Positions 3,776 through 32,334 of a stretch of DNA of 48,550 nucleotides are shown one piece after another. The DNA lies in the IMG/VR virus record IMGVR_UViG_3300045988_097997. One strand, given 5' to 3'. A model generated the notes under the pieces. It did not search any database. It had not been told where the DNA came from and was given only the letters and a program-made list of their open reading frames with translations. How positions within the stretch are numbered: the stretch's first letter is position 1; each line of letters begins with the position of its first letter. The position numbers and the translations under genes are program-made. The stretch is from a virus.

Positions 3776-4354
3776 TTATTTGTTTTCTCCGCTGTCGAGG
3801 GTTGGCCTCTGTGCGATTTCCTCATCGGTGTATCCGGCATCTTTCAGGTATGCAGTTCTCGCGTCCAGGAATTGGGTCTCTGCGGTTGGGATGATCTGCA
3901 GGTTTTTCTGTGCCGATTCGAGGCTGGAATACTTTTCGTTATCAATGTAGTCACGAAGATCGTTTGCTATCATATAGACCGTGGAAATATACCCCTCTGC
4001 TGCGTCCTGGTATTCTGCTGCTGTGCCGTCAGCCATATCGACGGCCTTGACGGTGGTCAAAAGGTTGCCCACAAAATCCTTGGTTTCTCCTGCGTAGCTG
4101 TATACGTCTAATAGGTCCGTTTCTCCCGTGTCCATTGTCTGGACCTTATCCGCGAGTTTTACCTGGTACTGCTGGGCGGACCAGACCGACCGCGCAATCT
4201 CCAAGTCCTTTTCCCCGGCAGTCGTTTTGATCTCTTCCGGCGTCATGTTTGAGGTTGTATCGCTATCGCCTGAGCCGATAAGGGCTACAAGAGCGACAAA
4301 TACAACGATCAACGCGACGAGGATGATTAGTACAACTTTGAGTGTCTTTTTCAT
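3776..4354 (-). CDS. Membrane-anchored or secreted protein of the lysogeny module, function unknown
   Basis: N-terminal MKKTLKVVLIILVALIVVFVALVALIG anchor followed by an acidic helical ectodomain. It lies between the repressor genes and the integrase. Confidence 0.6.
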   Translation of the reverse strand: MKKTLKVVLIILVALIVVFVALVALIGSGDSDTTSNMTPEEIKTTAGEKDLEIARSVWSAQQYQVKLADKVQTMDTGETDLLDVYSYAGETKDFVGNLLTTVKAVDMADGTAAEYQDAAEGYISTVYMIANDLRDYIDNEKYSSLESAQKNLQIIPTAETQFLDARTAYLKDAGYTDEEIAQRPTLDSGENK

Positions 4355-11742: not shown

Positions 11743-11916
11743 ATGAAACGCAGAGATTTGATAAAGCTACTGGAGAAAAACGGCTGGTATCTCAAACGGA
11801 ATGGTGGAAACCATGATATTTATACCAACGGGCGAGAAAATGAGCCGGTTTCCAGACAGAGCGAAATCAAAGAAGACCTTGCAAAAGCAATCATCAAACG
11901 GAGAGGGCTGAAATAA
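11743..11916 (+). CDS. hicA: HicA-family mRNA interferase toxin (57 aa, below the ORF-track cutoff)
   Basis: MKRRDLIKLLEKNGWYLKRNGGNHDIY......PVSRQSEIKEDLAKAIIKRRGL is the canonical HicA pattern. Confidence 0.88.
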   Translation: MKRRDLIKLLEKNGWYLKRNGGNHDIYTNGRENEPVSRQSEIKEDLAKAIIKRRGLK

Positions 11917-11961
11917 GCCCTCTCCACCCCCTGCACCATCAAACAAGGAGGGAAAAAGCAT

Positions 11962-12348
11962 ATGAAACGAGCATATCCGGTTATCTTTACCCCGGCGGCT
12001 GAGGGCGGCTACGTGTCCTATATGCCGGACTTCGATATAAACTCCCAGGGCGAGGACCTGGCCGAGGCAATCGAAATGGCGCGGGACGCCATGGGGATTA
12101 TGGGAATTGATATGGAGGACGAAGGGAAAGCGCTGCCGGAAGCCTCTGCGAGTGTAGCGCATAAGCCTGGGGACGTTGTGTCCTTTGTCGATGTTGATTT
12201 CACTGAGTACCGCAGGCAGAACGATATGCGGACCGTCCGGCGGAACGTGTCGTTGCCGTCCTGGTTGAACGCCGAGGCAGACAAGGCGGGGCTGAATGTG
12301 TCCGCCGTCCTGCAAAGTGCCCTCAAGCAAGAACTCGGAAAAGTTTGA
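11962..12348 (+). CDS. hicB: HicB-family antitoxin
   Basis: YPVIFTPAAEGGYVSYMPDFDINSQGEDLAEAIEMARDA is a HicB N-domain. The C-terminal RRNVSLPSWLNAEADKAGLNVSAVLQSALKQEL is RHH-like. Confidence 0.88.
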   Translation: MKRAYPVIFTPAAEGGYVSYMPDFDINSQGEDLAEAIEMARDAMGIMGIDMEDEGKALPEASASVAHKPGDVVSFVDVDFTEYRRQNDMRTVRRNVSLPSWLNAEADKAGLNVSAVLQSALKQELGKV

Positions 12349-12464
12349 TAGTAAATGATAGCTTTTGTGGTTGTTTGTAGCATTATTTGCGTGGTATAGT
12401 ACAACCATCGGAGCAAGGCCGCACGGGGAAACCTGTCGCGGCCTTTTCTGTTGGAGGTGATAGC

Positions 12465-13130
12465 ATGAGCAGCGGCGGGTCTGGAGTTGAAAACTATTCG
12501 ACCGTAGTCAAAGAGATCCGGGGGATGCGTAAGGGGGCTGAGACCTGCATCAAACGAACGATGTCCGATATGCGGACCCGTGTTCCTGGATGGGTAGCGA
12601 CCGAGGTTGCCGCAGTCTACGGCATCAAGAAGGGAGAGATCACCCCGTCAAAGGCTGGCAAGGGCGGCAAGAAAGCTGGCGGTGTCAGCGTCCGAGGTGA
12701 GACGATAGACTCTATGGTGATCGTCTACAGGGGCCGCGTCCTTACCCCCACGCATTTTGGGATGACGCCAAAGGCTGCACCCCCGAACAGAGGGTACACC
12801 CTGAAAGCCTCTATCCTGAAAGGCTCCAAGTCCACCCTGGGCAAGGTGAAGAAGCTCACGAAGAAGCAGCGGAAACAGATCGGAAAAAACTTCCGACGGC
12901 AGGGCACGAGGTCGAGCGACCATTCCCCCATTATGCTCATGGGCAATGGCGGGGGCGGCTCTATCCCATTCCAGCGTAAGAGTCCGAACAGGAAAGACCT
13001 GGAGGTCATCAAGACAGTATCCCTGCCGCAGATGGTGTCCAGTGATAGAACCAAGGACAACATCGAGCGAGCTATCAACGAGGGCCTGGGGAAGCGCCTA
13101 CAGCAAAACCTGAAGCTGATCCTGAAATAG
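12465..13130 (+). CDS. Lambda gpZ-like minor tail / tail-completion protein (tentative)
   Basis: Trimmed to the ATG with a GGAGGTG RBS. The basic middle and the C-terminal ...LEVIKTVSLPQMVSSDRTKDNIERAINEGLGKRLQQNLKLILK resemble the gpZ C-terminus (recalled from memory). Confidence 0.4.
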   Translation: MSSGGSGVENYSTVVKEIRGMRKGAETCIKRTMSDMRTRVPGWVATEVAAVYGIKKGEITPSKAGKGGKKAGGVSVRGETIDSMVIVYRGRVLTPTHFGMTPKAAPPNRGYTLKASILKGSKSTLGKVKKLTKKQRKQIGKNFRRQGTRSSDHSPIMLMGNGGGGSIPFQRKSPNRKDLEVIKTVSLPQMVSSDRTKDNIERAINEGLGKRLQQNLKLILK

Positions 13131-13176: not shown

Positions 13177-13581
13177 GTGGAGGATACGAGGACGAAGTAC
13201 CGGCTGACGTTGGCACAGTACATGGAAGAGATCAAGAAGGTGGAGACAAAGGCGAAGAGGGCCATGCGGATAACTCTATGGCTCAAGATCATCTTGTCTA
13301 TCGCCACCGTATCTGCTGTGGGCGCATGGCTGAAAGGCCACGGGGCAAAGGAAGTCTGGGCATTCATTATCGTGTTGGCTGAGCTGGCCGATGCTATGAT
13401 GAACACACTGCCTTATGCTGAACAGCGGACGAAGCTGCCGCAGATGAAGATCAAGCTCACTGACATCTATGTGGAGATGGAGCATGACCTGACACGCCTG
13501 GAGACTGGGATAATCACAGAGGACGCCGCGCTGGAGAAATACTTCGCGCACAGGGACACATGGGGGAAAGCACTCGCATAA
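13177..13581 (+). CDS. Small 2-TM membrane protein with a helical C-terminal domain, function unknown
   Basis: GTG start with an AGGAGGTG RBS. Two hydrophobic helices (ITLWLKIILSIATVSAVGAWL and VWAFIIVLAELADAMMNTL) are followed by a coiled segment. Confidence 0.6.
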   Translation: MEDTRTKYRLTLAQYMEEIKKVETKAKRAMRITLWLKIILSIATVSAVGAWLKGHGAKEVWAFIIVLAELADAMMNTLPYAEQRTKLPQMKIKLTDIYVEMEHDLTRLETGIITEDAALEKYFAHRDTWGKALA

Positions 13582-13670: not shown

Positions 13671-13744
13671 GGTCTCTTAGCTCAATGGCAGAGCTACCGG
13701 CTCATAACCGGATAGGCATGGTTCGATTCCATGAGGGACCACCA
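13671..13744 (+). tRNA. tRNA with CAT anticodon (Met, or Ile2 if lysidinylated), CCA encoded
   Basis: Hand-folded cloverleaf: acceptor GGTCTCT/AGGGACC, D-arm GCTC..GAGC, anticodon loop CTCATAA, T-arm CATGG-TTCGATT-CCATG, discriminator A plus CCA. Confidence 0.85.
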
Positions 13745-14145: not shown

Positions 14146-14943
14146 GTGAAAAATATAGCTGCAATCAACCAGGAGCGCAGGCTTATTTCCGAACTGAAAC
14201 CTGCTGAGTACAATCCGAGAAAGCGGCTGCGGCCTGGAGATGAAGAGTACGAGAATCTAAAACGCAGTATCCAGACGTTTGGCTACGTTGATCCTATTAT
14301 CGTCAACAAAGACGGTACTGTGATCGGCGGACACCAGCGTCTTTTTGTTTTGTCTGACCTGGGGTATCTGGAGGCGGACGTTGCTGTTGTTGATCTCAAT
14401 AAGCAGGACGAAAAGGCTCTGAACATTGCCCTGAACAAAATCAGTGGTGAGTGGGACCAGGAAAAGCTGGCGGCCATATTTTCCGAGCTGAACCTGGAGG
14501 GCTACGACGCCACTGTTTCTGGCTTCCAGGATGACGAGATAGCCAGTCTGATTTCTGGCGTAGTGGCTGAGGAAGTCGAAGCTGCCGAGCAATACAGCCG
14601 AAAGGTGAACGTCCCACACTACGAGATCACCGGTGAGACGCCTAAAATCAGTGAGTTGTTTGACCAGTCAAAGGCCCTGGCCCTGCTGGATGACATCGAG
14701 AGCGACGGAAGCATCAGCGAAGAGGAACGAGAGTTCCTGAGACTCGCTGCCATGCGGCACGTCGTTTTTAATTACCGAAACATCGCTGAGTATTATGCCG
14801 CTGCCAGCCCTGCGATGCAGGGGCTTATGGAAGACTCAGCCCTTGTGATCATCGACTTGGACAGAGCGATAGCCAACGGCTTTGTGAATCTGTCCAAGGC
14901 CGTCGAAGCTATCATTGAGGATGGGAAGAGCGAAAGTGCGTGA
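14146..14943 (+). CDS. ParB/Srx N-terminal-domain protein with no methyltransferase domain
   Basis: GTG start with an AGAGGTG RBS. LKPAEYNPRK, RSIQTFGYVDPIIVNKDGTVIGGHQR and ALNIALNK are ParBc signatures. The C-terminal half is unassigned. Confidence 0.8.
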   Translation: MKNIAAINQERRLISELKPAEYNPRKRLRPGDEEYENLKRSIQTFGYVDPIIVNKDGTVIGGHQRLFVLSDLGYLEADVAVVDLNKQDEKALNIALNKISGEWDQEKLAAIFSELNLEGYDATVSGFQDDEIASLISGVVAEEVEAAEQYSRKVNVPHYEITGETPKISELFDQSKALALLDDIESDGSISEEEREFLRLAAMRHVVFNYRNIAEYYAAASPAMQGLMEDSALVIIDLDRAIANGFVNLSKAVEAIIEDGKSESA

Positions 14944-15799
14944 CGACTTTGCTGTTTTCATCCTGACTCATGGCAGAGCTGATAACGTGGTTACGCTCAG
15001 GACCCTTGAGCGGCAGGGGTACAGCGGGCGGTGGTATCTGCTCATTGATGACGAGGATTCTATGGCCCCGACCTACTACGAGAAATTCGGCAGGGATCAC
15101 GTCATTACTTTCTGCAAGCAGGCTGCCTTGGACAGGGCTGACACCATGGACAATTTCAACGAGCATCGAGCTATCCTGTACGCCAGAAACGAGAGCTTCC
15201 GAATTGCGCGAGAGCTTGGCCTGACGTATTTTCTCCAGTTGGACGATGATTACTCCATTTTTATGCTCAGGTATCCTGACGGTAGTAAATTGGCCCACTT
15301 GACGCTCACGGGAAAAAACCTGGAGACGCTATTCGAGGCTATGATCGACTTTCTGGATTCCTCTGGGGCGCTGACCGTGGCGTTTGCCCAGGGTGGTGAC
15401 TACATTGGAGGCTTGGCCGGTGGAGCTTATGAGAAACGCTTGATGCGAAAAGCCATGAACACGTTTTTCTGCCGGACTGACCGCCCGATAGAGTTCCGAG
15501 GGACCATGAACGAGGATGTTACGGCATATACCACGCTGGGGAGCCGGGGGGACTTGTTCTTCACTGTCGCGGATGCCTGCATCGCTCAGTTGCAGACACA
15601 ATCTCTGAGCGGCGGCATGAGCGAGGCGTATTCTGAATCTGGGACCTACTTAAAAACTTTCTATTCGGTCATGTCTATGCCGTCCTGCATCAAGGTTAGC
15701 ATAATGGGAGAAAAACACAAACGAATCCATCACAGGATTAACTGGGAGTGCTGTGTCCCTAAAATCCTGGACGAAAAATACAGAAAGGACGTTGACTGA
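14915..15799 (+). CDS. GT-A-like (nucleotide-diphospho-sugar transferase-like) protein, tentative
   Basis: Overlaps the ParB stop. It has an N-terminal FAVFILTHGRADN strand-loop and an acidic LQLDDDY (DxD-like) motif. The coding call is solid; the function is inferred from motifs only. Confidence 0.45.
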   Translation: MRMGRAKVRDDFAVFILTHGRADNVVTLRTLERQGYSGRWYLLIDDEDSMAPTYYEKFGRDHVITFCKQAALDRADTMDNFNEHRAILYARNESFRIARELGLTYFLQLDDDYSIFMLRYPDGSKLAHLTLTGKNLETLFEAMIDFLDSSGALTVAFAQGGDYIGGLAGGAYEKRLMRKAMNTFFCRTDRPIEFRGTMNEDVTAYTTLGSRGDLFFTVADACIAQLQTQSLSGGMSEAYSESGTYLKTFYSVMSMPSCIKVSIMGEKHKRIHHRINWECCVPKILDEKYRKDVD

Positions 15800-16758
15800 T
15801 GCTAGGAATCACTGGTGATAAGATGCTGTCGCACATTGACAGGATCGTCGGAGACAACAGGCCAATAACAGCCGACGTGTTTCTGACCAACTACTGTAAC
15901 AACAGCTGCCCGTACTGCACATACCGTCGCTGGAACCTGGAGGACGGCGCGTACTCGATGGGCTATGACGAATTTGTCCTGTATGCTGAACGGCTGCTAT
16001 CGTTTGGAGTGCAGGGCATTATCCTGACCGGGGGCGGAGAACCTACCGTCTGCCGAGATTTCGAGAAGATCACGTCCTGGATGGAGTCACAGGGAATCCA
16101 CTACGGAATTAACACGAATTTTAATCGGATGGTCCGCATCAAACCTGACTATCTCAAGGTATCTTTGGACGGCTGGGACGAGGATAGCTACGCCGAGCGC
16201 CGGGGCGTCCGACATTACCAGCTGACACGAAAGAATATCCAGGCGTATGCAGCATGGAAGCGAGAGAATAGCCCCAGCACGTCCCTGGGCATCCAGTGTG
16301 TGGTCAAATCTGTGGAAGATGTGGAAAAATTCTTTTCTGCCAACAGGGATTTGGACGTTGACTACATCGTTTTCAGGCCGGAAGAAAGCACCGGTGGGAA
16401 AGCCTATGCTGGGGAATCTGCGAGAGCTTCTGCTGCTGAGATTATTCAGGCGGTGAATAAACTTGCAGAGACAGACGACCGTGTGGTGTGCAACTTCAAG
16501 TGGAACTTGCTGGGCGTCCAGGAGCGTGATTGCGTGGCTGCCTGGTCCCAGATTGCCGTGAATGAGCGCGGCGGCATTATGTTCTGCTGCCACAAGCCGT
16601 ACCAAGTCCTTGGCCACATCATGGACGAGGATATTCTGGAGAAAAAGGCGGCTGCTGTGACGGATATGCGAACCTGTGACATTCCGTGCAGGCTGACAGC
16701 ACCAAACGCTTTCGTAGCCAGCACAATGGCCGAGAGAAAGGACGCTTGTTTTTTATGA
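15799..16758 (+). CDS. Radical SAM enzyme with a SPASM/twitch-like C-terminal Cys motif
   Basis: C33-x3-C37-x2-C40 (FLTNYCNNSCPYCTY), a GGGEPT SAM-binding motif, and C-terminal C-x12-G-x4-CC ... LGHI ... C-x3-C. The start overlaps the upstream stop (TGATG). Confidence 0.8.
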   Translation: MLGITGDKMLSHIDRIVGDNRPITADVFLTNYCNNSCPYCTYRRWNLEDGAYSMGYDEFVLYAERLLSFGVQGIILTGGGEPTVCRDFEKITSWMESQGIHYGINTNFNRMVRIKPDYLKVSLDGWDEDSYAERRGVRHYQLTRKNIQAYAAWKRENSPSTSLGIQCVVKSVEDVEKFFSANRDLDVDYIVFRPEESTGGKAYAGESARASAAEIIQAVNKLAETDDRVVCNFKWNLLGVQERDCVAAWSQIAVNERGGIMFCCHKPYQVLGHIMDEDILEKKAAAVTDMRTCDIPCRLTAPNAFVASTMAERKDACFL

Positions 16759-16778: not shown

Positions 16779-17339
16779 ATGGCAGAACAGAGCAACTTAC
16801 AACCGACGACTGTGATAGCCCAGATCTTCGGCGTGTCTACCCGGCGGGTGGAGCAGCTAAAGGCCGAGGGCATCATCAAGGGCCACGGGAAACCGACAAA
16901 GTATGACCTGCTGCCTACGATCAAGGCGTACATATCCTACCTATCAGACAAGGCGTATGGGCGGGAGAAGAAGCAGACCGACGCACAGCTGGCAACAGCG
17001 AAGCTGGAGGCTGAGAAGAGAATCAAAGTCGCCAAGGCTGAAATGGCCGAGCTGGAGCTACGAGAGCTGAAAGGTGAGCTGCACCGGGCGTCCGATGTTG
17101 AGGCTATCACTACGGACCACGTCATGTTCCTGCGCTCCATGCTCATGGCACTGCCAGGGAAAGTGGCCGTCGATATGGCTGCGATACAGTCCGCGCCGGA
17201 GGCTGCGGAACGCATGAAACAGGAGGTATACAACATCCTGGGGCGGCTGGCCTCATATCGGTATGACCCTGGCGAATACAAAGATCGAGTGATGGAAAGG
17301 CAGGGTTGGAATGAACGACAAGGAGACGACGACGACTAA
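16779..17339 (+). CDS. Terminase small subunit (Nu1-like wHTH N-terminus)
   Basis: TTVIAQIFGVSTRRVEQLKAEGII...KYDLL..IKAYI.YL, then a coiled coil. Immediately upstream of, and overlapping, the GpA-type large subunit. Confidence 0.75.
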   Translation: MAEQSNLQPTTVIAQIFGVSTRRVEQLKAEGIIKGHGKPTKYDLLPTIKAYISYLSDKAYGREKKQTDAQLATAKLEAEKRIKVAKAEMAELELRELKGELHRASDVEAITTDHVMFLRSMLMALPGKVAVDMAAIQSAPEAAERMKQEVYNILGRLASYRYDPGEYKDRVMERQGWNERQGDDDD

Positions 17340-19257
17340 AAAGCGCCGTATGCGTTCCGTTGATCGGACCTTTGCCCGTTCCTTTGCAAACTATACGCCC
17401 CCTGCTGATCTTACCGTTTCCGAGTGGGCTGAGGCCCACAGGGTATTGTCCAGGGAGAACAGCGCCGAGGCTGGCCCGTGGCGCAATGCCCGAACCCCGT
17501 ACCTGGTGGAGATCATGGACGCCTTTACCGACCCGAAGGTGGACAAAATAAGCCTGGTTGCATCGTCCCAGGTCGGCAAGTCCGAACTGGAGCTTAATAT
17601 CATCGGGTATATCATCGACCAGGACCCTGGCTCGATTCTGTATATCCAGCCTACCGTTGACGACGCAAAGAAATTTTCGCGGCTGCGTATCGCGCCGATG
17701 ATCCGGGATAGCCTGACGCTACGGCAGAAGGTTGCGGACGTCAAAAGCCGGGACAGCGGTAACACCATGCTGCAAAAGTCTTTCCCTGGCGGGATGCTTA
17801 CCATCGTAGGCTCCAACAGCGCCAGCGGCCTGGCATCTACCCCGGCAAAATATGTCCTGGGCGACGAGCGCGACCGGTGGGCCTTATCGGCTGGAACTGA
17901 GGGCGACCCCTGGGCGCTGGCTGAGGCCCGGACGACGACGTTTTACAACTCAAAGATGGTGGATGTATCCACCCCGACCGACAAGGAAACCAGCCCCATT
18001 GCCAAGTCCTTCAACGAGGGGACAAGGGAACGTTGGTGCCATAAATGCCCGCACTGCGGGGAGTATTCCAATATCGTTTTCGACAACATCAAATTCGATT
18101 TTGAGACCGTCGGAAGCGGCAGGAAGAAAGATTACATCATAAATTCTGTTTCGTGGAGCTGCCCGGAGTGCGGTTGCCTCTCCACCGAGGAAGAAATGCG
18201 TAGGCAGCCCGCAGAGTGGATTGCTGAGAACCCCGAAGCCTACGCCAAGGGGCACCGGTCATTTTGGCTGAACGCTTTTTCATCCCCGTGGCAGGCGTGG
18301 TCAAAGGTGGTCTACTCGTTCCTGATAGCCCGGAAGGACCCGCAGCGACTCAAAGTCGTGTACAACACGATGCTGGGCGAACTGTGGGAGGATCGCGGCG
18401 ACCTGGAGGACGAGGACACCATGCTTGGCCGCCGGGAGGACTACGGCCACAGAGAGGATGGAACACCGGTTGAGCTGCCCGAGGGCGTCCTGGCCCTGAC
18501 GTGTGGCGTGGATACTCAGGACGACCGTCTGGAGTACGAGGTCTTGGGGCATGGTCACTACGGCGAGACCTGGGGCATCAAGAAGGGCATAATCATGGGT
18601 GATCCTGCTTACGATGAACCATGGAAGCGGCTGGACGACGTGCTGGAGCACGTTTACCGGTTCCGGGATGGTAAGGGGCTGACCATAGCCCGAACGTTCG
18701 TAGACAGCGGCGGGCACAAGACACAGCACGTCTATACTCAATGCAGGGCGCGGCTGAATAGGCGCGTTTTTGCGATAAAAGGCCAGGGCGGGGACGGGAT
18801 ACCGTTCACCAAGCCGCCGAGCAAAGTCAAGATCGTAGTCAACGGCAGGGCGATGGGTCAAACGTGGCTCTATTCCCTTGGCGTTGACGCAGGCAAGGCG
18901 GACATATTCGCCGCCTTGAAGGTACAAGAAGCCGGTCCGAAGTTCTGTCACTTCCCGAAGGGGGAGGAACGGGGCTACGACATGGCTTTTTTTAATGGGC
19001 TTTTGTCTGAAAAGCTGGTAATGAGGTCTGATCGAGGCCGGACACGCTGGGCGTGGGTGAAGCTGCCGGGGCACGAACGAAACGAGGCCCTGGACTGCCG
19101 AAACTATGCCCTGGCCGCATTCCGTTCTTGGGACCCTGATCTTGACGCCGTGGAGCGCAGGCTTCGTGGTGCTGGAGATGATGCAGTGGAAGCAAAACAA
19201 AGGACGCGGCGGCGCGGCGTGGTGAAACGTAGGACGACCGCCGGTGACGATTGGTAG
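17311..19257 (+). CDS. Terminase large subunit, lambda GpA family
   Basis: LTVSEWAE..RVLS.E.SAE.GPWRN.RTPYL.EIMDA and VASSQVGKSE (Walker A-like). It contains a CPHCGE...CPECG zinc motif. 648 aa. Confidence 0.92.
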   Translation: MNDKETTTTKKRRMRSVDRTFARSFANYTPPADLTVSEWAEAHRVLSRENSAEAGPWRNARTPYLVEIMDAFTDPKVDKISLVASSQVGKSELELNIIGYIIDQDPGSILYIQPTVDDAKKFSRLRIAPMIRDSLTLRQKVADVKSRDSGNTMLQKSFPGGMLTIVGSNSASGLASTPAKYVLGDERDRWALSAGTEGDPWALAEARTTTFYNSKMVDVSTPTDKETSPIAKSFNEGTRERWCHKCPHCGEYSNIVFDNIKFDFETVGSGRKKDYIINSVSWSCPECGCLSTEEEMRRQPAEWIAENPEAYAKGHRSFWLNAFSSPWQAWSKVVYSFLIARKDPQRLKVVYNTMLGELWEDRGDLEDEDTMLGRREDYGHREDGTPVELPEGVLALTCGVDTQDDRLEYEVLGHGHYGETWGIKKGIIMGDPAYDEPWKRLDDVLEHVYRFRDGKGLTIARTFVDSGGHKTQHVYTQCRARLNRRVFAIKGQGGDGIPFTKPPSKVKIVVNGRAMGQTWLYSLGVDAGKADIFAALKVQEAGPKFCHFPKGEERGYDMAFFNGLLSEKLVMRSDRGRTRWAWVKLPGHERNEALDCRNYALAAFRSWDPDLDAVERRLRGAGDDAVEAKQRTRRRGVVKRRTTAGDDW

Positions 19258-19268
19258 GAGGTTTGCAC

Positions 19269-19526
19269 ATGGCAAGTAGAACGGTGCTGGAGCTACGGCT
19301 TGAGCGGAAGAAAGAGGCCCTTGCTGCTGCTGAGGAAGCGTACATTGCACTGCTGAAAGGCCAGGTCAAGGCATACGCAATCGGGAGCCGGAACCTGACA
19401 CGCTTTGATCTTCCGCAGCTGGAGGACACCATTGCGAAGCTGGAAAAAGAGATCGACGAGCTGGAATCACAGCTCAACGGAGGACGCCGCCGAAAGGCTG
19501 TGTCCGTTATCCCCCGTGACTGGTGA
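19269..19526 (+). CDS. gpW-like head-tail joining protein
   Basis: Trimmed to the ATG after a GGAGG RBS. The small helical protein ends in ...KAVSVIPRDW and lies between terL and the portal gene, as in lambda. Confidence 0.6.
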   Translation: MASRTVLELRLERKKEALAAAEEAYIALLKGQVKAYAIGSRNLTRFDLPQLEDTIAKLEKEIDELESQLNGGRRRKAVSVIPRDW

Positions 19527-19591
19527 TTTTTCATCGGTTATCAGCCCGCGCAAGCTGGCTTTTAACATAAAAACGAAGGAAGGAGGAAGCA

Positions 19592-21211
19592 ATGGGAACA
19601 CAAGTCAAACCTAAAAGCGCCGCAAACTCTCGTGTGGTTATGAAGGGTTATTCACAAGCCGGGGCCAGCTACACCAAAAAGGCTCTTAAAGGGTTCCGAG
19701 TCTCCAGCGGAGCGCCGTCTGAGGACATTGACCAGAACAATTACACCCTGCGTCAGCGGTCCCGGATGCTGTACATGGGGGCACCGGTTGCAACGGCAGC
19801 CCTGAAACGGCAGCGGACGAACATCGTTGGTTCCGGCCTGTGGCTGAAAAGCACCATCGACCGGGATACCCTGGGCATGACCAAGGAGCAGGCGGAAGCG
19901 TGGCAGCGCAAGACGCAGGCCGAGTTTGCTCTGTGGGCAGAACGGAAACAAACCTGTGACGCCACCGGCCTGAACAATTTCTACGGGATGCAGCAGCTTG
20001 TTGCGCTGTCGTGGCCCATGAGCGGCGACGTGTTTGCTCTGGTCAAGCGGGCCGAGGTGACGCCTCTTGCCCCGTATTCCCTGCGCCTGCATCTGATCGA
20101 GGCGGATAGAGTGCGAACGCCTGCGGCCAGCGGGGGCATCTTCGCAGCCAACCAGACGAAGGGGAAGAATCCGGCGAACGGAAACACCATCTACGACGGT
20201 GTGGAGGTGGACCGGAACGGGGCTATTGTGGCCTATCATATCGCCAATACCTATCCGTACCAGTACGACGGGACCCCGACAGAGTTTGTCCGGGTGGAGG
20301 CTTACGGGGCCGGGACCAGCCTACCGAACGTCCTGCAAGTCATGGACTCTGAACGTCCTGACCAGTATCGGGGCGTCCCGTACCTGGCCCAGGTGATTGA
20401 GCCTTTGTTGCAGCTGCGGAGATACACCGAGGCTGAGATCATGGCCGCCGTTGTGCAGAGCTTTTTCACGGCTTTCGTGAAAACTGAGGCCGGGGCCGAT
20501 GATATGCCATTCAATGAGCCTATCAGCGCGGACCAGGACGAGGTGAGCAAGGACCCGAACGAGTATGAGCTGGGGCCTGGGGCCATGAACATCATGGAAC
20601 CTGGGGAGGACATCACGTTTGCGAGTCCGACCCACCCGAACACCGGCTTTGATACGTTCGTTCGCGCCATTGTGGAGCAGGTGGGGGCCTCTCTGGAGAT
20701 CCCTGCCGACCTCATGATGATGTCATTCAGTTCTAGCTATTCGGCCAGCCGTGCGGCCCTGCTGGAGGCCTGGAAGGGCTTCAAAATGCGCCGGGAGTGG
20801 TTGGCAGATGATTTTTGCCGCCCAGTCTACGAGCTGTGGCTGACCGAGGCCGTAGCCCGTGGGCGTATCTCTGCCCCCGGATTTCTGACAGACCCCATCA
20901 TCCGGCAGGCGTACCTGGGCAGCGAATGGATCGGGCCGTCTCAGGGACAACTTGACCCGACGAAGGAAGTCTCTGCCGCCGTCACTGCCGTTGAGAACGG
21001 ATTCTCAACCCGCGAGGCTGAGTCCATCAAGTTGAACGGCAGCGAGTACAGCCGGAACGTGGACAAACTGACCACGGAAAATGAGCAGCTGAGGGCGGCG
21101 ACCGGCGGGAACGCACAACCAGCACAGGCGGCCCCTGTGGAGCCGGTAGGACCGCTCGACGACAACGAAGGAATGGAGGGACAAAATAATGGGGAAAACG
21201 ATCCCGTTTAA
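19592..21211 (+). CDS. Portal protein, lambda family
   Basis: LRQRSRMLYMG.PVA.AALKR...NIVGSGL pattern. Size and position match lambda gpB-type portals. Confidence 0.88.
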   Translation: MGTQVKPKSAANSRVVMKGYSQAGASYTKKALKGFRVSSGAPSEDIDQNNYTLRQRSRMLYMGAPVATAALKRQRTNIVGSGLWLKSTIDRDTLGMTKEQAEAWQRKTQAEFALWAERKQTCDATGLNNFYGMQQLVALSWPMSGDVFALVKRAEVTPLAPYSLRLHLIEADRVRTPAASGGIFAANQTKGKNPANGNTIYDGVEVDRNGAIVAYHIANTYPYQYDGTPTEFVRVEAYGAGTSLPNVLQVMDSERPDQYRGVPYLAQVIEPLLQLRRYTEAEIMAAVVQSFFTAFVKTEAGADDMPFNEPISADQDEVSKDPNEYELGPGAMNIMEPGEDITFASPTHPNTGFDTFVRAIVEQVGASLEIPADLMMMSFSSSYSASRAALLEAWKGFKMRREWLADDFCRPVYELWLTEAVARGRISAPGFLTDPIIRQAYLGSEWIGPSQGQLDPTKEVSAAVTAVENGFSTREAESIKLNGSEYSRNVDKLTTENEQLRAATGGNAQPAQAAPVEPVGPLDDNEGMEGQNNGENDPV

Positions 21212-22406
21212 GCCGTACACCATCAACATGGTGGGCGAGAACGACGCCGAGATCAACATGTACGGGGAGGTTGTCGAGCAGCACCCCACGGACTGGTGGA
21301 GCGGCGAACCTGTCCCCGGCAATTTCATTGCCCTGGACGATTTTCTGAACGACTTGGATGAGCTGGGGAGCAAGGACAACATCACCATCCACATCAACAG
21401 CGTGGGCGGCAGCCTGTACGCTGGCCTGGCGATCTACAACCGGCTGCGGTCCATCTCTGCCAACGTGATTACCGTCAACGATGCCCTGGCCGCGTCTGCT
21501 GCAAGCATCATCTTCCAGGCCGGTAACACCCGGAAGGTCCACGCCGGGAGCAATCTCATGATTCATGGGGCCGCTGGTTTCCTGTATGGCTATTACCAGG
21601 TCCCGGACCTGAAAGACGCCATCAAAGGGCTTGAGTCCGCAAACAAAACCGCTGCTGCTGCCTATGCGCAAGCCACCGGGAAAGACGCGGCCAGTGTGAA
21701 AAGCATGATGGACAAAGAAACCTGGATGACCGGCCAGGAGGCCGTTGACGCTGGTTTCGCGGATGAGGTCATCGACGGGGAGTCTGAAATCAGCATGAGC
21801 TTGTCCCCTGACAAGCGTTTCATCGTGTCAAATGGTGTGGCGATGTCCACCCATGGCATGGGAGTATACCCGACAGGAATTAAGACTATGACGGCGGCGC
21901 AGGCCGCTATTTTTGTGGGCAAAAACGCCCCAGAACCTAGTGTGCAGCCTGCCCAGCAGGTCACAAATAAAAAAATCGGAGGTACCAACATGGACAAGAT
22001 CACCACCATGGAGGCCCTGCGCGACGCATACCCCGACCTGGTGTCCCAGGTTGAGGCCGCCGCCAAGGCATCCGAGAAGGCCGACGGCATCAAGGCCGAA
22101 CGCGCCCGTATCCAGGGCATTGAGGCTATCGAGGCCGCCATTGGCGACAAGGAGATGGTCCGGGAGGCCAAGTACGGCGAGACTCCCCTGACCGCTGAGC
22201 AGCTGGCATTCAAGGCTATGCAGGCCCAGGCTGCCATCGGCGCAACCGTCGTCAAGAACCTGGAGGACGACGCGGCAAAGTCCGGCGCTGCTGGTGTGGC
22301 TGCTGATCCTGCGGGCAGCGATCCCAAGACCAAAGAAGAGGATGAGGAAGCGCAGGCCGTCAACCTGATTGCCGGTTTCCGTCCCAAGAACAAGAAGGAG
22401 GGCTAA
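21189..22406 (+). CDS. ClpP-like head maturation protease fused to a scaffold-like C-terminal region
   Basis: INSVGGSLYAGLAIYNRLRS...ALAASAASIIFQAG...MIHGA is a ClpP/S14 core. The Ala/Glu-rich helical C-terminus is scaffold-like. Confidence 0.85.
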   Translation: MGKTIPFKPYTINMVGENDAEINMYGEVVEQHPTDWWSGEPVPGNFIALDDFLNDLDELGSKDNITIHINSVGGSLYAGLAIYNRLRSISANVITVNDALAASAASIIFQAGNTRKVHAGSNLMIHGAAGFLYGYYQVPDLKDAIKGLESANKTAAAAYAQATGKDAASVKSMMDKETWMTGQEAVDAGFADEVIDGESEISMSLSPDKRFIVSNGVAMSTHGMGVYPTGIKTMTAAQAAIFVGKNAPEPSVQPAQQVTNKKIGGTNMDKITTMEALRDAYPDLVSQVEAAAKASEKADGIKAERARIQGIEAIEAAIGDKEMVREAKYGETPLTAEQLAFKAMQAQAAIGATVVKNLEDDAAKSGAAGVAADPAGSDPKTKEEDEEAQAVNLIAGFRPKNKKEG

Positions 22407-22409
22407 ACA

Positions 22410-22802
22410 ATGGCTAACTACGAAGCAATGGGCGAGATGAAATACGCCAACATCTGGAACAGCGCAGACGTGCCTATCATCACCGGCCTGCGTACTATCC
22501 GCAAGCTGTCTGCTGCCGCCACTTACAAGGCCGGTACTGCGCTGGCACTGTCCGGCGGCACCGCAGGCGACGGCAAACTGGTGATCCTGGGCACCGCAGC
22601 CGAATCCAACGAGACCCTGACCGCCAACTGCATCCTGGCTGAGGACGTGGAGATCGGCACCGACGCAGACGTGCAGGCGCTTGTTTTCCTGTCCGGCCAT
22701 GCCAACGCCAACAAACTGACTGTCGCATCCAGCCACACTATCACCGCCGCAGAGATCGAGGCTTTCCGCGCTGCCGGAATCTATCTCGAAAATGCAATGT
22801 AA
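22410..22802 (+). CDS. Head decoration protein (gpD-like)
   Basis: 130 aa between the protease and the major capsid gene. The G/A/T-rich beta-type sequence (AGTALALSGGTAGDGKLV...) resembles the HDPD family. Confidence 0.6.
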   Translation: MANYEAMGEMKYANIWNSADVPIITGLRTIRKLSAAATYKAGTALALSGGTAGDGKLVILGTAAESNETLTANCILAEDVEIGTDADVQALVFLSGHANANKLTVASSHTITAAEIEAFRAAGIYLENAM

Positions 22803-22815
22803 GGAGGGCTAAACA

Positions 22816-23889
22816 ATGGCATTTGACCTGTATAAAACCAAGACCATGCTGGCTGCCGTCGAGCAGATGGAGCCTGTCCATTCTTTCCTGCGTGACCGCT
22901 ACTTTCCCACCGGTGCGGGCGACCTGTTCCCCACCGACGAAGTGCTGATCGAGTACCGAGATGGCACCAACAGAGCTATGGCCCCTGTGGTCGTTGACGG
23001 GCACGACGGTATCACCGTTGGCCGCAACGGTTACAAGACTTTCCGCATGGAGCCGCCCCTTGTGGCACCCAAGCGCCACCTGTCCGAGGACGACCTGCGT
23101 AAGAAGGGCTTTGGCGAAGAGCTGTTTTCCACCATCACCCCTGAGCAGCGGCAGGCTCAGCTGCTGGCAAAGGACCTGACCGAGCTGGATGAGCTGCACA
23201 CCAACCGTGAGGAATACATCGCCGCCAAGTGCATCTTCGAGAACGGCTACACCCTGAACCAGTGGGCCGACGAGTACGGCACCACTGGCAAGTCCAAGGC
23301 ATACGTCATGAAGTTCTACACCGAGGGCACCAACCCCGCCACCTACACCCCCGGCACCAAGTGGGACGCTACCGGGTCCGACAAAATGGCCGACCTGCTG
23401 ACCATGGCCCGCCAGCTGACTACCGCAGGGAACGCGGCAACCGATGTGCTGCTGGGTTTTGACGCTGCCGACGCGCTGATGAACGACGCGACCATCCAGA
23501 AACTGATGGACCTGAACCGTTACGACGCCGGTCAGATCGCGCCTCAGCTGATGCAGGACGGTGCTGCCCTGCTGGGCATCCTGAACGTCCGGGGTCATCG
23601 TCTGAACCTGATCACCTATGACGGCACCTACAAGGACGAGACTACCGGCACCGTCACTGCCTACATCCCTGCAAAGTCCATCTGCGTGACCGCCCCCGGC
23701 GCTGGCCGTGCCCTGTATGGCTGCGTCACCCAGACCGAGCAGGCTGACGGTGCTTTCCATTCCTACATGGGCCGTCGTGTGCCCCGTTACTGGTCCGACA
23801 AGAAGGGCCGCGAGCTGCGGCTGGCTTCCAAGCCCCTGCTGGTGCCCCGTACCAAGAACCCCTTCATCTCTGCAACCGTGCTGGACTGA
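22816..23889 (+). CDS. Major capsid protein, lambda gpE family
   Basis: MAFDLYKTKTMLAAVEQMEPVHSFLRDRYFP......FPTDEVLIEY is a typical Phage_cap_E N-terminus. 357 aa. Confidence 0.88.
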   Translation: MAFDLYKTKTMLAAVEQMEPVHSFLRDRYFPTGAGDLFPTDEVLIEYRDGTNRAMAPVVVDGHDGITVGRNGYKTFRMEPPLVAPKRHLSEDDLRKKGFGEELFSTITPEQRQAQLLAKDLTELDELHTNREEYIAAKCIFENGYTLNQWADEYGTTGKSKAYVMKFYTEGTNPATYTPGTKWDATGSDKMADLLTMARQLTTAGNAATDVLLGFDAADALMNDATIQKLMDLNRYDAGQIAPQLMQDGAALLGILNVRGHRLNLITYDGTYKDETTGTVTAYIPAKSICVTAPGAGRALYGCVTQTEQADGAFHSYMGRRVPRYWSDKKGRELRLASKPLLVPRTKNPFISATVLD

Positions 23890-23911
23890 GGGACGAAAGG
23901 AGCAAAAACAC

Positions 23912-24352
23912 ATGATTAAGATCGTCTGTGGTGTATACGGCCACTACATCGACGGCAGAGTCGTTGCCAAGAACAGCGAGTCCGAGCCGTTTTCTCTGAC
24001 TCCCCGGCAGGAGGCGGAGCTTGTGGCAAAGGGCGTCGCGGCGTTCGTGGATGAGGTCGCAGAGGTCTCCCATACGGAGGCCTCTGCGCCTGTCGGCTTT
24101 GATGAGATGCCAGAGTTACCGGAGGGAGTCACTGCTATTCCCGATTACAGCATCGACTCCAAGGCCGATGAACTGAGAAAGATCGGGAAACTCTGCGGCC
24201 TGACCTTCAAGGTCGGCATGAGCAAGGCCGAAATGGTGGAAGCCCTGGACGGCTTTTTTGCTGAACATCTCATCGACGAAGACGACGCCGAGGATGCAGA
24301 GGACGACGGCATGGACCTGCCCGACTTTGATCCCGCCGAGGCGGTGGAGTAA
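23912..24352 (+). CDS. Hypothetical head-associated protein with a Rho-N/SAP-like helix pair and an acidic tail
   Basis: Trimmed to the ATG after an AGGAG RBS. ADELRKIGKLCGLTFKVGMSKAEMVEALDGFF resembles HeH/Rho_N motifs. Confidence 0.5.
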   Translation: MIKIVCGVYGHYIDGRVVAKNSESEPFSLTPRQEAELVAKGVAAFVDEVAEVSHTEASAPVGFDEMPELPEGVTAIPDYSIDSKADELRKIGKLCGLTFKVGMSKAEMVEALDGFFAEHLIDEDDAEDAEDDGMDLPDFDPAEAVE

Positions 24353-24666
24353 TGGGTTTCAAAGATGCTGTTTCTGCCGACAGGGGCGTTTTTTTGGACC
24401 TTGAGTTTTTCGGCGAGAATGTGACCGTAGAGGGCAAGGAGATCCCCATTGTCGTAGACAACGACCAGCTGAAAACCCGCCAGGGAAGCCAGGAGCTTGC
24501 CATTGCTGAAAGTGCTACGCAGTTCTATGCACGGACTGAGGACCTGCCCAAGGGCCTTGCCCCAGGCAGCAGCCTGAACATCAATGGGCGGGAGTGCCTG
24601 GTTGATGATTACAGCGAGGCAATGGGAGTCTCGACGGTTGTCCTGAGAGAAGCCATAGCAGTGTAA
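24352..24666 (+). CDS. Head-tail attachment protein (gpFII-like), tentative
   Basis: 104 aa. The position and the overall pattern (FLDLEFFGE...V.V.GKEI..., ...INGRECLVDDY...) resemble head-tail joining proteins. Confidence 0.4.
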   Translation: MGFKDAVSADRGVFLDLEFFGENVTVEGKEIPIVVDNDQLKTRQGSQELAIAESATQFYARTEDLPKGLAPGSSLNINGRECLVDDYSEAMGVSTVVLREAIAV

Positions 24667-24680
24667 GGGAGGCGAGCAGA

Positions 24681-25301
24681 ATGTCCGTCGTAAACATCCT
24701 GGATAGCGTCACAGAGTGGGTCCGGGAGAACATCTGTGCTCAAATCAAGCTCAAAGCGCCGCCAGAGAATGATACCGACCCGACCGACTCCGGGTATGAG
24801 TACAAGGTTATCACCCCTGCGGCTTTTCCGCTGTTCGTCCCGGCGAAGGACAAGGCCCCGCCTGGTATCCTGTCCCCGATACCGTCCGTCTGTGTCCGGT
24901 TCCTGGAGGGGGCCGAAAGCCCGGCAGGCAGCAATGGCAGTATCGGGATGCAACTTTGTTTTTCAACCTGGGACCCTGGCGTACACGGGGCTGACATGCT
25001 GCTGCCAGATGGAAACGGAGGGGCCAAGAAATGGACAGGGCCAGAGGCAGACGCCTATTTCCAGCGCAGTGCTGGAGGCTGGCGAGATGCTTGGAATTTC
25101 GTTGACATTGCTCTTCGGGCACTTGGTAGCACGACTATCGTCGGTGGCTATGCTATCGACCGCAGCGTCCCGATGAAGTTCGGTCCCTTGACCGAGGAGG
25201 GGGCTATCATTGACGCTTATCCGCTGTGGTTTGCCTGGTGCTCGTTCTCCCTGTCCTACGACCTGCGCCGCAACATTGCTGATCTATCAAAATTCCTGTA
25301 A
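24681..25301 (+). CDS. Neck / tail-completion protein, function inferred from position
   Basis: 206-aa ORF directly upstream of the sheath gene. Confidence 0.4.
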   Translation: MSVVNILDSVTEWVRENICAQIKLKAPPENDTDPTDSGYEYKVITPAAFPLFVPAKDKAPPGILSPIPSVCVRFLEGAESPAGSNGSIGMQLCFSTWDPGVHGADMLLPDGNGGAKKWTGPEADAYFQRSAGGWRDAWNFVDIALRALGSTTIVGGYAIDRSVPMKFGPLTEEGAIIDAYPLWFAWCSFSLSYDLRRNIADLSKFL

Positions 25302-25313
25302 GGAGGGAAATCA

Positions 25314-26789
25314 ATGGCAGTATACAAACACGGTACCTACGGCGAGTTTTCGGCAAGCATTGGGAAGCCTGCGTCTTCCGCTGGCACTGTCGCCGTCTAC
25401 GTTGGTACCGCCCCGGTAAACCTTGTCCGGGGCTATGCTACCGCCGGTGTCGTGAATGAACCGGTGTATCTGTCCAGCCTGTCCGCAGTAAAGCGGTTGA
25501 TGGGCTACGCGGCAGACTGGGCGAAGTTCACGCTTTGCGAAGCCTTTGCCCTGCATTTCGACAGCGAAGAGAACGTCGGCCCCATCGTGGCTATCAATGT
25601 TCTCAACCCTGCCACCCACAAGAAGAGTGCTGAGACCACGAAACAGCTTACCTTTGCCAATGGGCGGGCTACCATCGACAGCACCACCATCATCCTGGAT
25701 ACCCTGGTATTGGCTGAGAAGGTCGAGGGCGTGGATTTCTCCATCGACTACGACTTCACCAAGGGTCAGGTAATTATCGAGAGCCTGGGCGACACTGAGA
25801 TCACCGGCTCTGTCAACTGCACGTTCAGCGAGATCGACACCAGCAACATTGACAAGGATGACATTGTTGGCGGTGTGACTGCCGCAGGTGTGTACACCGG
25901 CCTGGGCTGTGTGTCACTGGTGTATCAGGATCTTAACATCATCCCCAACCTGATTGCCGCCCCTGGCTGGAGCGACAAGAAGGACGTTTACTCCGCCATG
26001 GTCAAGGCAGCGGCCAAAATCAATGGGCACTGGGATGCTATGGCCGTCGTAGACATTCCCCTCATGGATTCCAGCGCCGCCGTTGATACCATCGAAAAGG
26101 CCAACACCTGGAAAGATACCAACGGCTACACCAGCGAACGAGCAAAGGTCTGCTGGCCCCAGGGCAAGGACAGTTCTGACCGCGTTATTCATGCGTCTAC
26201 CCTGTGGGCATGGCGGCAGATGCTCGTCGATGCTGAACACGACGGGGTGCCTATGGAGAGTGCATCCAACAAGGCTGTCCCTGTTGTCAAGCAGTATTTC
26301 GGCGCGTCCGCCACGAATCGCGGCTTTGACCAGCAGCGGGCAAACGACCTGAACCAGAACGGTATCTCCACCATCGTCTTTTTTGGTGGCCAGTGGGTAC
26401 TCTGGGGTCCCCATACTGCGGGGTTTAAGCACGGCGCGATTACAGACAATCGCGTAATCTTTGACGTGTCCATTCGGATGATGATGCACCAGTCCAATTC
26501 GTTCCAGAAAGACTGGGCGCTGACCATCGACAGCCCCATGACCCGTGCCATGGCCGACACCATCAAGAACCAGGAGCAGGAAAAGGCCGATGCTCTGGCC
26601 TCTATGGGTGCCCTGATCGGTACCCCTGTTGTCCGGTTCGACGAGGACGACAATTCCACCGACGAGCTGGTTCAGGGCAATTTTGTCTGGAGCTACGAGT
26701 CTACCCCGACGCCGCCTTTCAAGAGCGGCACCATGAAGGTTGCCTACAGCTCCGAGGGATTCAACAGCTTTATCGGGGAGGAGGGTTAA
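25314..26789 (+). CDS. Contractile tail sheath protein
   Basis: MAVYKHGTYGEF....G......T.AVYVGTAPV is a typical sheath N-terminus. 491 aa, followed by the tube gene. Confidence 0.88.
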   Translation: MAVYKHGTYGEFSASIGKPASSAGTVAVYVGTAPVNLVRGYATAGVVNEPVYLSSLSAVKRLMGYAADWAKFTLCEAFALHFDSEENVGPIVAINVLNPATHKKSAETTKQLTFANGRATIDSTTIILDTLVLAEKVEGVDFSIDYDFTKGQVIIESLGDTEITGSVNCTFSEIDTSNIDKDDIVGGVTAAGVYTGLGCVSLVYQDLNIIPNLIAAPGWSDKKDVYSAMVKAAAKINGHWDAMAVVDIPLMDSSAAVDTIEKANTWKDTNGYTSERAKVCWPQGKDSSDRVIHASTLWAWRQMLVDAEHDGVPMESASNKAVPVVKQYFGASATNRGFDQQRANDLNQNGISTIVFFGGQWVLWGPHTAGFKHGAITDNRVIFDVSIRMMMHQSNSFQKDWALTIDSPMTRAMADTIKNQEQEKADALASMGALIGTPVVRFDEDDNSTDELVQGNFVWSYESTPTPPFKSGTMKVAYSSEGFNSFIGEEG

Positions 26790-26792
26790 ACA

Positions 26793-27299: not shown

Positions 27300-27356
27300 G
27301 CACAGAAGCCCTGCCGATGGAAACACCGGCGGGGCTTTTAATATACCGACGAAAGG

Positions 27357-27874: not shown

Positions 27875-27878
27875 TCCC

Positions 27879-31522: not shown

Positions 31523-31535
31523 GGGGGGGTACATC

Positions 31536-32042: not shown

Positions 32043-32055
32043 GGGGGGCGAGGAT

Positions 32056-32325: not shown

Positions 32326-32334
32326 CAGAAGGGA

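Follow-up and report, generated by a model that had tools for sequence, protein, structure and literature searches.

What do three overlapping genes placed directly in front of the terminase genes of a temperate phage do? The question is raised by positions 14,146 to 16,758 of IMG/VR virus record IMGVR_UViG_3300045988_097997 (48,550 nucleotides, referred to as the window), in which open reading frames (ORFs) for a ParB/Srx-like protein (ORF1), a glycosyltransferase (ORF2), and a radical S-adenosylmethionine (rSAM) enzyme (ORF3) follow one another (Table 1). A preliminary description, made from the sequence alone, considered the trio to be a candidate uncharacterised system for modification of DNA or of the virion. 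The trio is a genuine, syntenic and uncharacterised cassette. The function we favour, and to which we give an even chance, is ParB-guided glycosylation with a sugar remodelled by the rSAM enzyme, probably on DNA.

The cassette is compactly organized. A program-made call opens the longest frame of ORF2 at the TTG at position 14915. Because ORF2 homologues begin with MRDDF, as seen in an alignment of ten diverse representatives, the GTG at 14936 is the likely start, and ORF2 would then overlap ORF1 by 8 nt (GTGCGTGA). The ORF1 stop codon (TGA, 14941-14943) falls within the start region of ORF2, the ORF2 stop and the ORF3 start share the A of TGATG at 15797-15801, and 20 nt on the same strand separate the ORF3 stop from the start of the terminase small subunit gene (terS), all in agreement with the coordinates given initially. 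The window has 55.6% G+C and is nearly all plus-strand. Counts of promoter-like and terminator-like sites within the cassette, and of terminator-like sites from the cassette to terS, were not above those in shuffled sequences, and candidate internal promoters and terminators were rejected on this basis. The lack of excess is consistent with a single late operon that includes the cassette and continues into terS and the large subunit gene (terL).

ORF2, described at first as GT-A-like, could be narrowed down to the TET/JBP-associated glycosyltransferase (TAGT) family. It is matched by the Pfam model TAGT (PF20691) at 3e-43 (148.6 bits, cut-off 27.5) and by PHROG 842 at 4.2e-69. Motifs FAVFILTHGR and LQLDDDY are both found in it, and all other motifs listed in the preliminary description are likewise present in the respective proteins. 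Ten diverse TAGT homologues, when aligned, all share the R, the DDD, and the D of the ED pair, and at least 90% of them have the E. An active-site motif R...DDD...EDY/F was reported for phage GT-A DNA glycosyltransferases, which glycosylate 5-hydroxymethylcytosine (5hmC) in DNA and are similar to the base-J glucosyltransferase of trypanosomes (bioRxiv 10.1101/2023.12.21.572611). The ORF2 version comprises THGR, LQLDDDY, and NEDV, with V, not Y/F, in the final position. Judged by these sequence features, ORF2 is a clear member of the family that includes base-J and phage 5hmC DNA glycosyltransferases. TAGT homologues are abundant (>7372; >7000 protein clusters at 90% identity), and a profile search of the PDB with the TAGT alignment gave no match. 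The family was reportedly defined by Iyer et al. in 2013 in Nucleic Acids Research.

ORF1 is a strongly acidic protein (isoelectric point 4.5, net charge -22) that contains motifs KPAEYNPRK and VIGGHQR. Its N-terminal ~145 residues make up a ParB/Srx nucleotide-binding domain, as proposed previously: the profile of homologues matches Noc/Spo0J/ParB structures (2.6e-11), and PHROG 620, annotated as 'ParB-like', matches over the full length (3.8e-55). The Pfam model ParB_N gave 23.8 bits with the single ORF1 sequence, slightly under the cut-off of 26.3, and homologues carry the PF02195 annotation. The same domain is matched by the N-terminal module of PHROG 498, 'DNA methyltransferase' (3.3e-43), and by the PADLOC Type II methyltransferase model MTase_II (positions 11-149, 2.6e-38), and it is specifically the ParB subtype which is also found fused to phage DNA methyltransferases. 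An acidic linker joins it to a conserved C-terminal domain (CTD). As the preliminary description stated, this half of the protein is not a methyltransferase; the CTD is novel, with no relative detected in Pfam or PDB by profile searches. Its invariant positions (Y150, P157, Y159, P166, R204, H205, Q225, E229, and D237) are kept in homologues as distant as those of E. coli phages and a haloarchaeal virus. An exhaustive HMMER search through a library of 1.84 billion proteins disclosed 1138 cluster representatives, compared with just 8 proteins in a word-indexed search with the CTD alone. In the majority of them the CTD is located at the C-terminus of ParB-like proteins of 250-300 residues, and it also occurs in stand-alone proteins of 120-200 residues. 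The Pfam scan of ORF1 indicated neither a helix-turn-helix (HTH) nor any other domain beyond ParB_N, that is, no recognisable DNA-binding domain. An AlphaFold2 model based on a 7-sequence alignment was of low confidence (pLDDT 44.6). A partition ParB of the ParABS type was considered and rejected, given the absence of an HTH and of any ParA/CbiA match in the window; the NCBIfam model parB_part reached 19 bits (cut-off 58).

ORF3 is matched by the Pfam model Radical_SAM (PF04055) at 2.2e-11 (44.7 bits, cut-off 29.5), and its CNNSCPYC (C33-x3-C37-x2-C40) and GGGEPT motifs are invariant across homologues. Five further cysteines form the C-terminal pattern C245-x12-G258-x4-C263C264...C293-x3-C297, and all eight cysteines are invariant among homologues of 48-79% identity. 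SPASM domains hold seven cysteines and two clusters, and twitch domains fewer cysteines and one cluster. Since Pfam SPASM scores 14.7 bits (cut-off 21.5) and the extra cysteines number five, the twitch-type part of the original SPASM/twitch assignment fits better than a full SPASM domain; the five cysteines suggest a single-cluster twitch domain, and the NCBIfam twitch model gave 32.6 (cut-off 170). No curated NCBIfam family cut-off was reached, the best scores being 58 of the required 380 bits for a tungsten-cofactor maturase, 32 of 180 for viperin, and 32 of 325 for MoaA; PqqE, QueE, and anSME were among the families whose cut-offs it did not attain. Identities as viperin, MoaA, QueE or tungsten-cofactor maturase were rejected on these scores, and ORF3 does not belong to a well-known housekeeping family. 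All 626 ORF3 homologues are unnamed or generically named; P0114 and some other public ones are labelled 'tungsten cofactor oxidoreductase radical SAM maturase'. The score of 58 bits, far from the 380 required, makes this label an over-annotation.

The three genes recur together elsewhere. When viral contigs were scanned with ORF3, 80 loci with 48-100% identity emerged. The TAGT gene is immediately upstream of the rSAM gene in 75 of the 78 viral loci with room for it, the gap between the two is at most 35 nt in 70 of 71, and a ParB gene lies upstream of the TAGT in 72. Genes terS and terL recognisably related to those of the window were found in the closest relatives only; as terminases differ across the rSAM loci, the module moves between phage backbones. 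Furthermore, TAGT and rSAM proteins diverge in parallel: their identities to the window proteins correlate with r=0.94 (n=62, relatives above 90% identity excluded), measured as identity to one reference and not as a full co-phylogeny. ParB identity showed no correlation in the same comparison (r=-0.12). These data bear on the possibility that unrelated morons became adjacent by chance, ORF3 being a housekeeping rSAM enzyme. Stop and start codons often overlap in phage operons, and such overlaps are no proof by themselves. Nevertheless, an order preserved across unrelated phage backbones, the co-divergence, the existence of ORFs in which ParB and TAGT are fused, and the failure of ORF3 to match any curated housekeeping family effectively refute chance adjacency. 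Fourteen prophage copies were located in genomes or metagenome-assembled genomes (MAGs) named as Blautia, Muriventricola, other Clostridia, Phascolarctobacterium, and comparable gut or rumen taxa, which are strict anaerobes.

A second scan, with diverse TAGTs, covered 80 loci ranked by similarity to the TAGT of Lactobacillus phage phi jlb1 and is thus not a random sample. ParB or its CTD adjoins the TAGT in 79 of them, and the rSAM gene is present in 6, a frequency biased by the similarity ranking; in total, 626 rSAM homologues face the >7372 TAGTs. The sequence data thus indicate that ParB and TAGT form a widespread core to which the rSAM gene is an add-on, and the trio, initially treated as a unit, is divisible. 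The CTD without the ParB N-domain accompanies the TAGT in at least 10 loci (as in L073, positions 3932-4297), and in other loci ParB and TAGT are joined in a single ORF. In view of these CTD-alone loci, the fusions, and the rarity of the rSAM gene, CTD and TAGT constitute the minimal unit, with the ParB N-domain as a frequent extension and the rSAM enzyme as an optional third part. Some TAGTs carry an N-terminal P-loop NTPase domain, for which all Pfam, PHROG, and PDB matches are weak and a function as 5-hydroxymethyluracil DNA kinase is conjectural, and in others two TAGT paralogues stand in tandem; both variants suggest further glycan diversity.

The ParB-TAGT pair precedes the terminase in phages infecting Lactobacillus, E. 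coli, Salmonella, and Nocardia and in a haloarchaeal virus, and a recognisable terS or terL follows within two genes downstream in at least 30 of 71 further ParB-TAGT loci. As an illustration, Rac-type prophages of E. coli contain ynaK and a downstream gene (L003, 4217-5933), homologous to ORF1 (35% identity) and ORF2 (48%) and adjoining terS/terL upstream. Among 5426 complete E. coli genomes, 1580 (~29%) contain this pair, which is nearly full length in 889; its annotation does not go beyond a ParB/Srx protein and a 'hypothetical protein'. We found no functional literature on ynaK or ydaY. Unlike the cassette in the window, the E. coli pair has no rSAM gene, and its host is a facultative aerobe.

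The fold of ORF3 is informative with regard to the possible chemistry. The AlphaFold2 model (pLDDT 84.5, pTM 0.85), compared with the PDB by Foldseek, is most similar to DesII (1.5e-11), SuiB, BlsE (2.5e-10, TM 0.63/0.62), anSME, viperin, BtrN, and SpeY. DesII is a TDP-4-amino-4,6-dideoxyglucose deaminase/dehydrogenase, BlsE a cytosylglucuronate decarboxylase, and BtrN and SpeY are twitch dehydrogenases; according to the model, most fold neighbours of ORF3 are thus enzymes that tailor sugars or nucleotide-sugars. DesII, BlsE, BtrN, and SpeY are among the best structural matches (1.5e-11 to 7e-6), and in them, as in ORF3, a twitch/SPASM-type domain is placed C-terminally of the CX3CX2C core. 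ORF3 is set apart from them by 12-17% sequence identity, by the lack of a match to any curated model, by its C-x12-G-x4-CC...C-x3-C pattern, and by its position in a phage late operon. The top 50 fold matches include no DNA-acting rSAM enzyme such as spore photoproduct lyase, and a PDB search with the sequence gave matches of the N-terminal core to HydG and HydE and no others.

Viperin among the fold neighbours raises the possibility that a small nucleotide-like compound, produced or degraded by the cassette, serves counter-defence or host takeover and that no macromolecule is modified. An example would be a viperin-like modified NTP subsequently glycosylated, with CTP bound by the ParB-like domain. 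Likeness to viperin is weak (NCBIfam 5.4e-8, PADLOC pVip 1.8e-8, and viperin-CTP structures in Foldseek), and ParB N-domains do bind CTP (PMC13229309). The viperin score, however, reflects the shared rSAM core only, viperins are devoid of the conserved five-cysteine C-terminal domain, and NTP-binding residues were dispensable in the one ParB partner tested (PMC13229309). A late-operon position right before the terminase is also atypical for early counter-defence genes, and we regard such a role as very improbable.

To characterize what the rSAM enzyme may act on, gene content in its position and in its neighbourhood was compared. An NAD-dependent epimerase/dehydratase (PF01370, 1.2e-37) fills the slot between TAGT and terminase in six loci, and a different rSAM enzyme fills it in another. 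In L072 and L067, rSAM homologues with 55-58% identity pair with a GT2-like gene among head/capsid genes. In a cellular rumen MAG (L093, 2123-5954), a GT8 transferase gene overlaps the start of an rSAM homologue (48% identity), and both adjoin genes for a sugar-phosphate nucleotidyltransferase-HAD phosphatase fusion and an SIS isomerase; here the rSAM family is found in a cellular setting related to glycans or nucleotide-sugars. The association is lopsided: an rSAM gene is nearly always accompanied by a glycosyltransferase partner, and a TAGT is usually found without an rSAM gene. This asymmetry, together with the fold neighbours, the epimerase in the same slot, and the pairing with other glycosyltransferases, argues that ORF3 remodels a sugar. 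The substrate would probably be the nucleotide-sugar donor rather than DNA-bound material, since the donor is the common denominator of three glycosyltransferase families with presumably different acceptors. The initial proposal that the cassette adds a sugar and radical-modifies it is close to this best-supported mechanism, with the enzyme expected to act on the donor.

The same observations weigh on another role for ORF3, that of an oxygen-independent stand-in for the TET/JBP dioxygenases (5mYOX). Abstraction of hydrogen from the methyl of thymine or 5-methylcytosine, transfer of the second electron to the auxiliary cluster, and addition of water would give 5-hydroxymethyluracil (5hmU) or 5hmC, which the TAGT would glycosylate, so that a nucleotide similar to base J would be formed without oxygen. 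Such a step would supply the bases that TAGT enzymes are proven to glycosylate and would suit the activation of phage thymine dioxygenases by ParB homologues, the lack of detected 5mYOX or ThyS in scanned window ORFs and in relatives, and the anaerobic life of all identified hosts, where a dioxygenase requiring O2 would be inoperative. Twitch/SPASM dehydrogenases anSME and BtrN, fold neighbours of ORF3, carry out comparable two-electron oxidations. We nevertheless regard the stand-in as improbable. The dependency is reversed with respect to what it calls for, as TAGT and ParB occur without the rSAM gene in 74 of the 80 sampled loci, many of them from the same gut metagenome, whereas the rSAM gene is almost never without a glycosyltransferase. 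It also accompanies GT2-like, GT8, and NDP-sugar genes in non-DNA contexts, the slot is taken in sibling cassettes by an SDR sugar epimerase/dehydratase, and DNA-acting enzymes are missing from the leading fold matches.

We have also addressed the question of what is glycosylated. DNA is suggested as the most likely target because the ParB module is shared with DNA methyltransferases, because thymine dioxygenases acting on DNA are activated, specifically on double-stranded substrates, by cognate ParB homologues devoid of a DNA-binding domain (PMC13229309), and because the commonest neighbours of phage 5mYOX genes are glycosyltransferase, ParB, and terminase genes (PMC13229309). ParB partners of phage DNA-modification enzymes have been documented (PMC13229309, PMC8256090).

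Several features weigh against the combination of DNA as the target and a remodelled sugar. A scan of 46 non-structural window ORFs, drawn from outside the structural genes at 19251-37000 and comprising few of the minus-strand ORFs, disclosed no source of 5hmC or 5hmU (PF12851 TET/JBP, thymidylate-synthase-like or C5-methyltransferase); neither was a hydroxymethylating enzyme or C5-methyltransferase found within 8-10 kb in Pfam-annotated relatives. To our knowledge, every characterised member of the TAGT family needs 5hmC or 5hmU provided by an O2-dependent dioxygenase or by a deoxynucleoside monophosphate hydroxymethylase. These two bases are the only proven acceptors of TAGT-type glycosyltransferases (bioRxiv 10.1101/2023.12.21.572611), and a divergent 5mYOX can escape PF12851 (PMC13229309). 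All three cassette proteins are acidic, ORF1 included, for which no DNA-binding domain is recognisable. The L072-type arrangement among head genes suits protein glycosylation equally well, and a TAGT-family domain in human GREB1 glycosylates a protein (PMC7968844). With respect to the sugar, likeness of ORF3 to DesII and BlsE is accompanied by the low sequence identity given above, the peptide-modifying SPASM enzymes SuiB and anSME score as well in Foldseek, and the ranked sample limits how the rarity of the rSAM gene can be read.

Some of these features, namely the missing source of hydroxymethylated bases, the acidic ORF1 without a DNA-binding domain, the head-gene neighbourhoods of L072 and L067, and GREB1, would agree with a protein target, such as a capsid, portal or terminase component. 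The ParB-like protein would then have no connection with DNA and would act as an adaptor or as an enzyme, in a system glycosylating virion or packaging proteins. In addition, a distant cluster of rSAM and glycosyltransferase genes follows the major capsid gene in MW202801, and ParB/Srx folds include small-molecule kinases, one of which, SbnI, is a weak match of the ORF1-homologue profile. A protein target is nonetheless considered unlikely. The ORF1 N-domain is the specific ParB module of DNA methyltransferase fusions, characterised phage GT-A/TAGT members and the base-J glucosyltransferase act on DNA, and ParB partners work on double-stranded DNA substrates (PMC13229309). Moreover, the core pair is found beside many unrelated terminase and capsid types, and no conserved protein target travels with it.

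Comparison with described systems emphasizes both the familiar and the unusual in the cassette. The 5mYOX (TET/JBP)-glycosyltransferase clusters, including those with ParB-dependent thymine dioxygenases (Burke 2021, PMC8256090; O'Toole 2026, PMC13229309; bioRxiv 10.1101/2023.12.21.572611), share with it a TAGT/JGT-like GT-A enzyme that carries the R...DDD...ED motif, frequent proximity to the terminase, and a ParB homologue that combines a nucleotide-binding domain with a C-terminal one and in which no HTH is recognised. They possess one or two tandem glycosyltransferases and sometimes sugar-modifying partners such as epimerases, also in accordance with the loci studied here. In 5mYOX-associated ParB proteins a linker joins the nucleotide-binding domain to a C-terminal domain, which is needed for function (PMC13229309). 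In contrast to these clusters, neither a 5mYOX nor a C5-methyltransferase nor a ThyS-type hydroxymethylase was detected in the scanned window ORFs or in relatives, a twitch rSAM enzyme is present (the word 'radical' does not occur in PMC8256090, PMC13229309 or bioRxiv 10.1101/2023.12.21.572611), and the hosts of the cassette are strict anaerobes. ORF1-like proteins also differ from the 5mYOX-associated ParB activators (PMC13229309) in having no adjacent cognate 5mYOX found, their neighbour being the TAGT.

Kinetoplastid base J synthesis (JBP1/2 and JGT) is comparable in the concept of a TET/JBP-associated glycosyltransferase and in the proposed mechanism, a post-replicative sugar transfer to DNA, and differs in that no JBP-type hydroxylase was detected here and a sugar other than unmodified glucose is probable, given the co-evolution of the glycosyltransferase with a tailoring rSAM enzyme. 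Pairing with glycosyltransferase and NDP-sugar genes in the genome is another trait that the ORF3 family has in common with sugar-tailoring rSAM enzymes. Fusions of ParB to DNA methyltransferases, located upstream of phage terminases, have the same N-terminal module and genomic position as ORF1, in which the novel CTD replaces the methyltransferase and travels with a separate, occasionally fused, TAGT. Altogether, the cassette resembles 5mYOX-glycosyltransferase and base-J systems and fails one defining feature, the hydroxylase. The preliminary description saw no match to known pathways, which is too strong with regard to the TAGT and its ParB partnership, both known already; new is the addition of the rSAM enzyme, and unusual is its presence together with the absence of a TET/JBP or ThyS partner. 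No literature was found that combines radical SAM, ParB, glycosyltransferase, terminase, and DNA modification.

In the sequence of events that we propose, ORF2 would move a sugar from a nucleotide-sugar donor onto the target. ORF1 would be its dedicated partner, with the CTD as the TAGT-specific part and the ParB/Srx N-domain bringing double-stranded DNA to ORF2, as the example of thymine dioxygenases activated by ParB suggests. ORF3 would remodel the sugar through abstraction of a hydrogen atom, in chemistry similar to that of DesII, BlsE or BtrN, which may be oxidation, dehydration, deamination, epimerisation or decarboxylation. It would most likely work on the donor before transfer, yielding an unusual sugar under strictly anaerobic conditions. 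Being expressed late, the cassette would modify phage DNA around the time of packaging. The modification is probably new in kind, since the enzyme that usually prepares the base for sugar attachment is missing. A more specific proposal, which we put forward tentatively and consider possible rather than probable, is an oxygen-independent glycosylation of DNA in phages of gut anaerobes that bypasses bases made by TET/JBP or ThyS enzymes, with an rSAM-remodelled sugar placed by a ParB-guided TAGT enzyme on a canonical base or on a site created by the rSAM enzyme through oxidation of a pyrimidine methyl.

Other features of the window are included in Table 1. A gene for tRNA-Met (CAT; 13671-13744, plus strand) is located in the 565-bp gap between the ORF at 13177-13581 and the cassette. 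The ORF at 12387-13130, a match to PHROG 27 'tail completion or Neck1 protein' (3.7e-16), is upstream of the cassette and terminase, apart from other structural genes. A complete diversity-generating retroelement (DGR) occupies 34728-38387, and all 13 differences between its repeats sit at template adenines. A twister ribozyme lies just upstream of the ORF at 43015-44052. The dCMP deaminase and the MazG-like NTPase were suggested earlier to reshape the nucleotide pool in connection with the cassette. The deaminase gene itself is confirmed, while the MazG-like assignment is limited to a weak PHROG match with no Pfam match at E<=0.01. Nothing links either gene to the cassette, and such a link was rejected, as they are 30 kb away and not conserved with it.

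Table 1. Features of the window and of comparative loci; positions refer to the window unless a locus is named.
Feature	Position	Strand	Remarks
ORF1	14146-14943	+	GTG start, 265 aa, ParB/Srx-like
ORF1 CTD	14593-14910	+	~110 aa (about aa 150-255), conserved in alignment of homologues
ORF2	14936-15799	+	287 aa, predicted GT-A glycosyltransferase, TAGT family
ORF3	15799-16758	+	ATG start, 319 aa, radical SAM with C-terminal twitch-type domain
terS	16779-17339	+	Terminase small subunit; PHROG 57, 3e-37
terL	17311-19257	+	GpA type; Pfam GpA_ATPase 1.5e-77, GpA_nuclease 8.9e-84
HicA/HicB	11743-12348		Toxin-antitoxin pair
DGR variable repeat	36730-36865		C-terminus of tail-fibre gene 34728-36878
DGR template repeat	36998-37133		90% identical to variable repeat
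RT-18 RNA	37177-37254		Rfam RF03021, 62 bits
DGR reverse transcriptase	37296-38387		RVT_1, 2e-12
Twister ribozyme, type P5	42933-42997	+	Rfam RF02684, 53.7 bits (gathering score 37.6)
NTP pyrophosphohydrolase (MazG-like)	45345-45701		Weakly supported; PHROG 7e-6
dCMP deaminase	46433-46912		
Lar	48255-48455		Restriction-alleviation protein
ParB-TAGT fusion	L183/L184 8382-10013		Single 543-aa ORF
TAGT with N-terminal P-loop NTPase domain	L018 4583-6004		Also P0175, P0224
Two tandem TAGT paralogues	L021 4292-5990; L073 4287-5995		
Epimerase/dehydratase in rSAM slot	L114, L121, L123, L124, L155, L158		
Different rSAM in same slot	L146 3287-4129		PF04055, 1.4e-14

Phage DNA hypermodifications govern resistance to restriction and CRISPR and are a source of tools for epigenome sequencing. 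If true, the bypass pathway would represent a new chemical class of DNA hypermodification, and its two-gene core is carried by about 29% of complete E. coli genomes. Several hundred loci add to this core an uncharacterised rSAM enzyme, and they originate from phages of strictly anaerobic gut Clostridia, in which dioxygenase chemistry is impossible. The core pair is genetically tractable owing to its homologues in E. coli Rac-type prophages. Identity of the acceptor and of the sugar would reveal either a new modification of DNA or virions, abundant in the human gut virome, or a new reaction of twitch-type rSAM enzymes.

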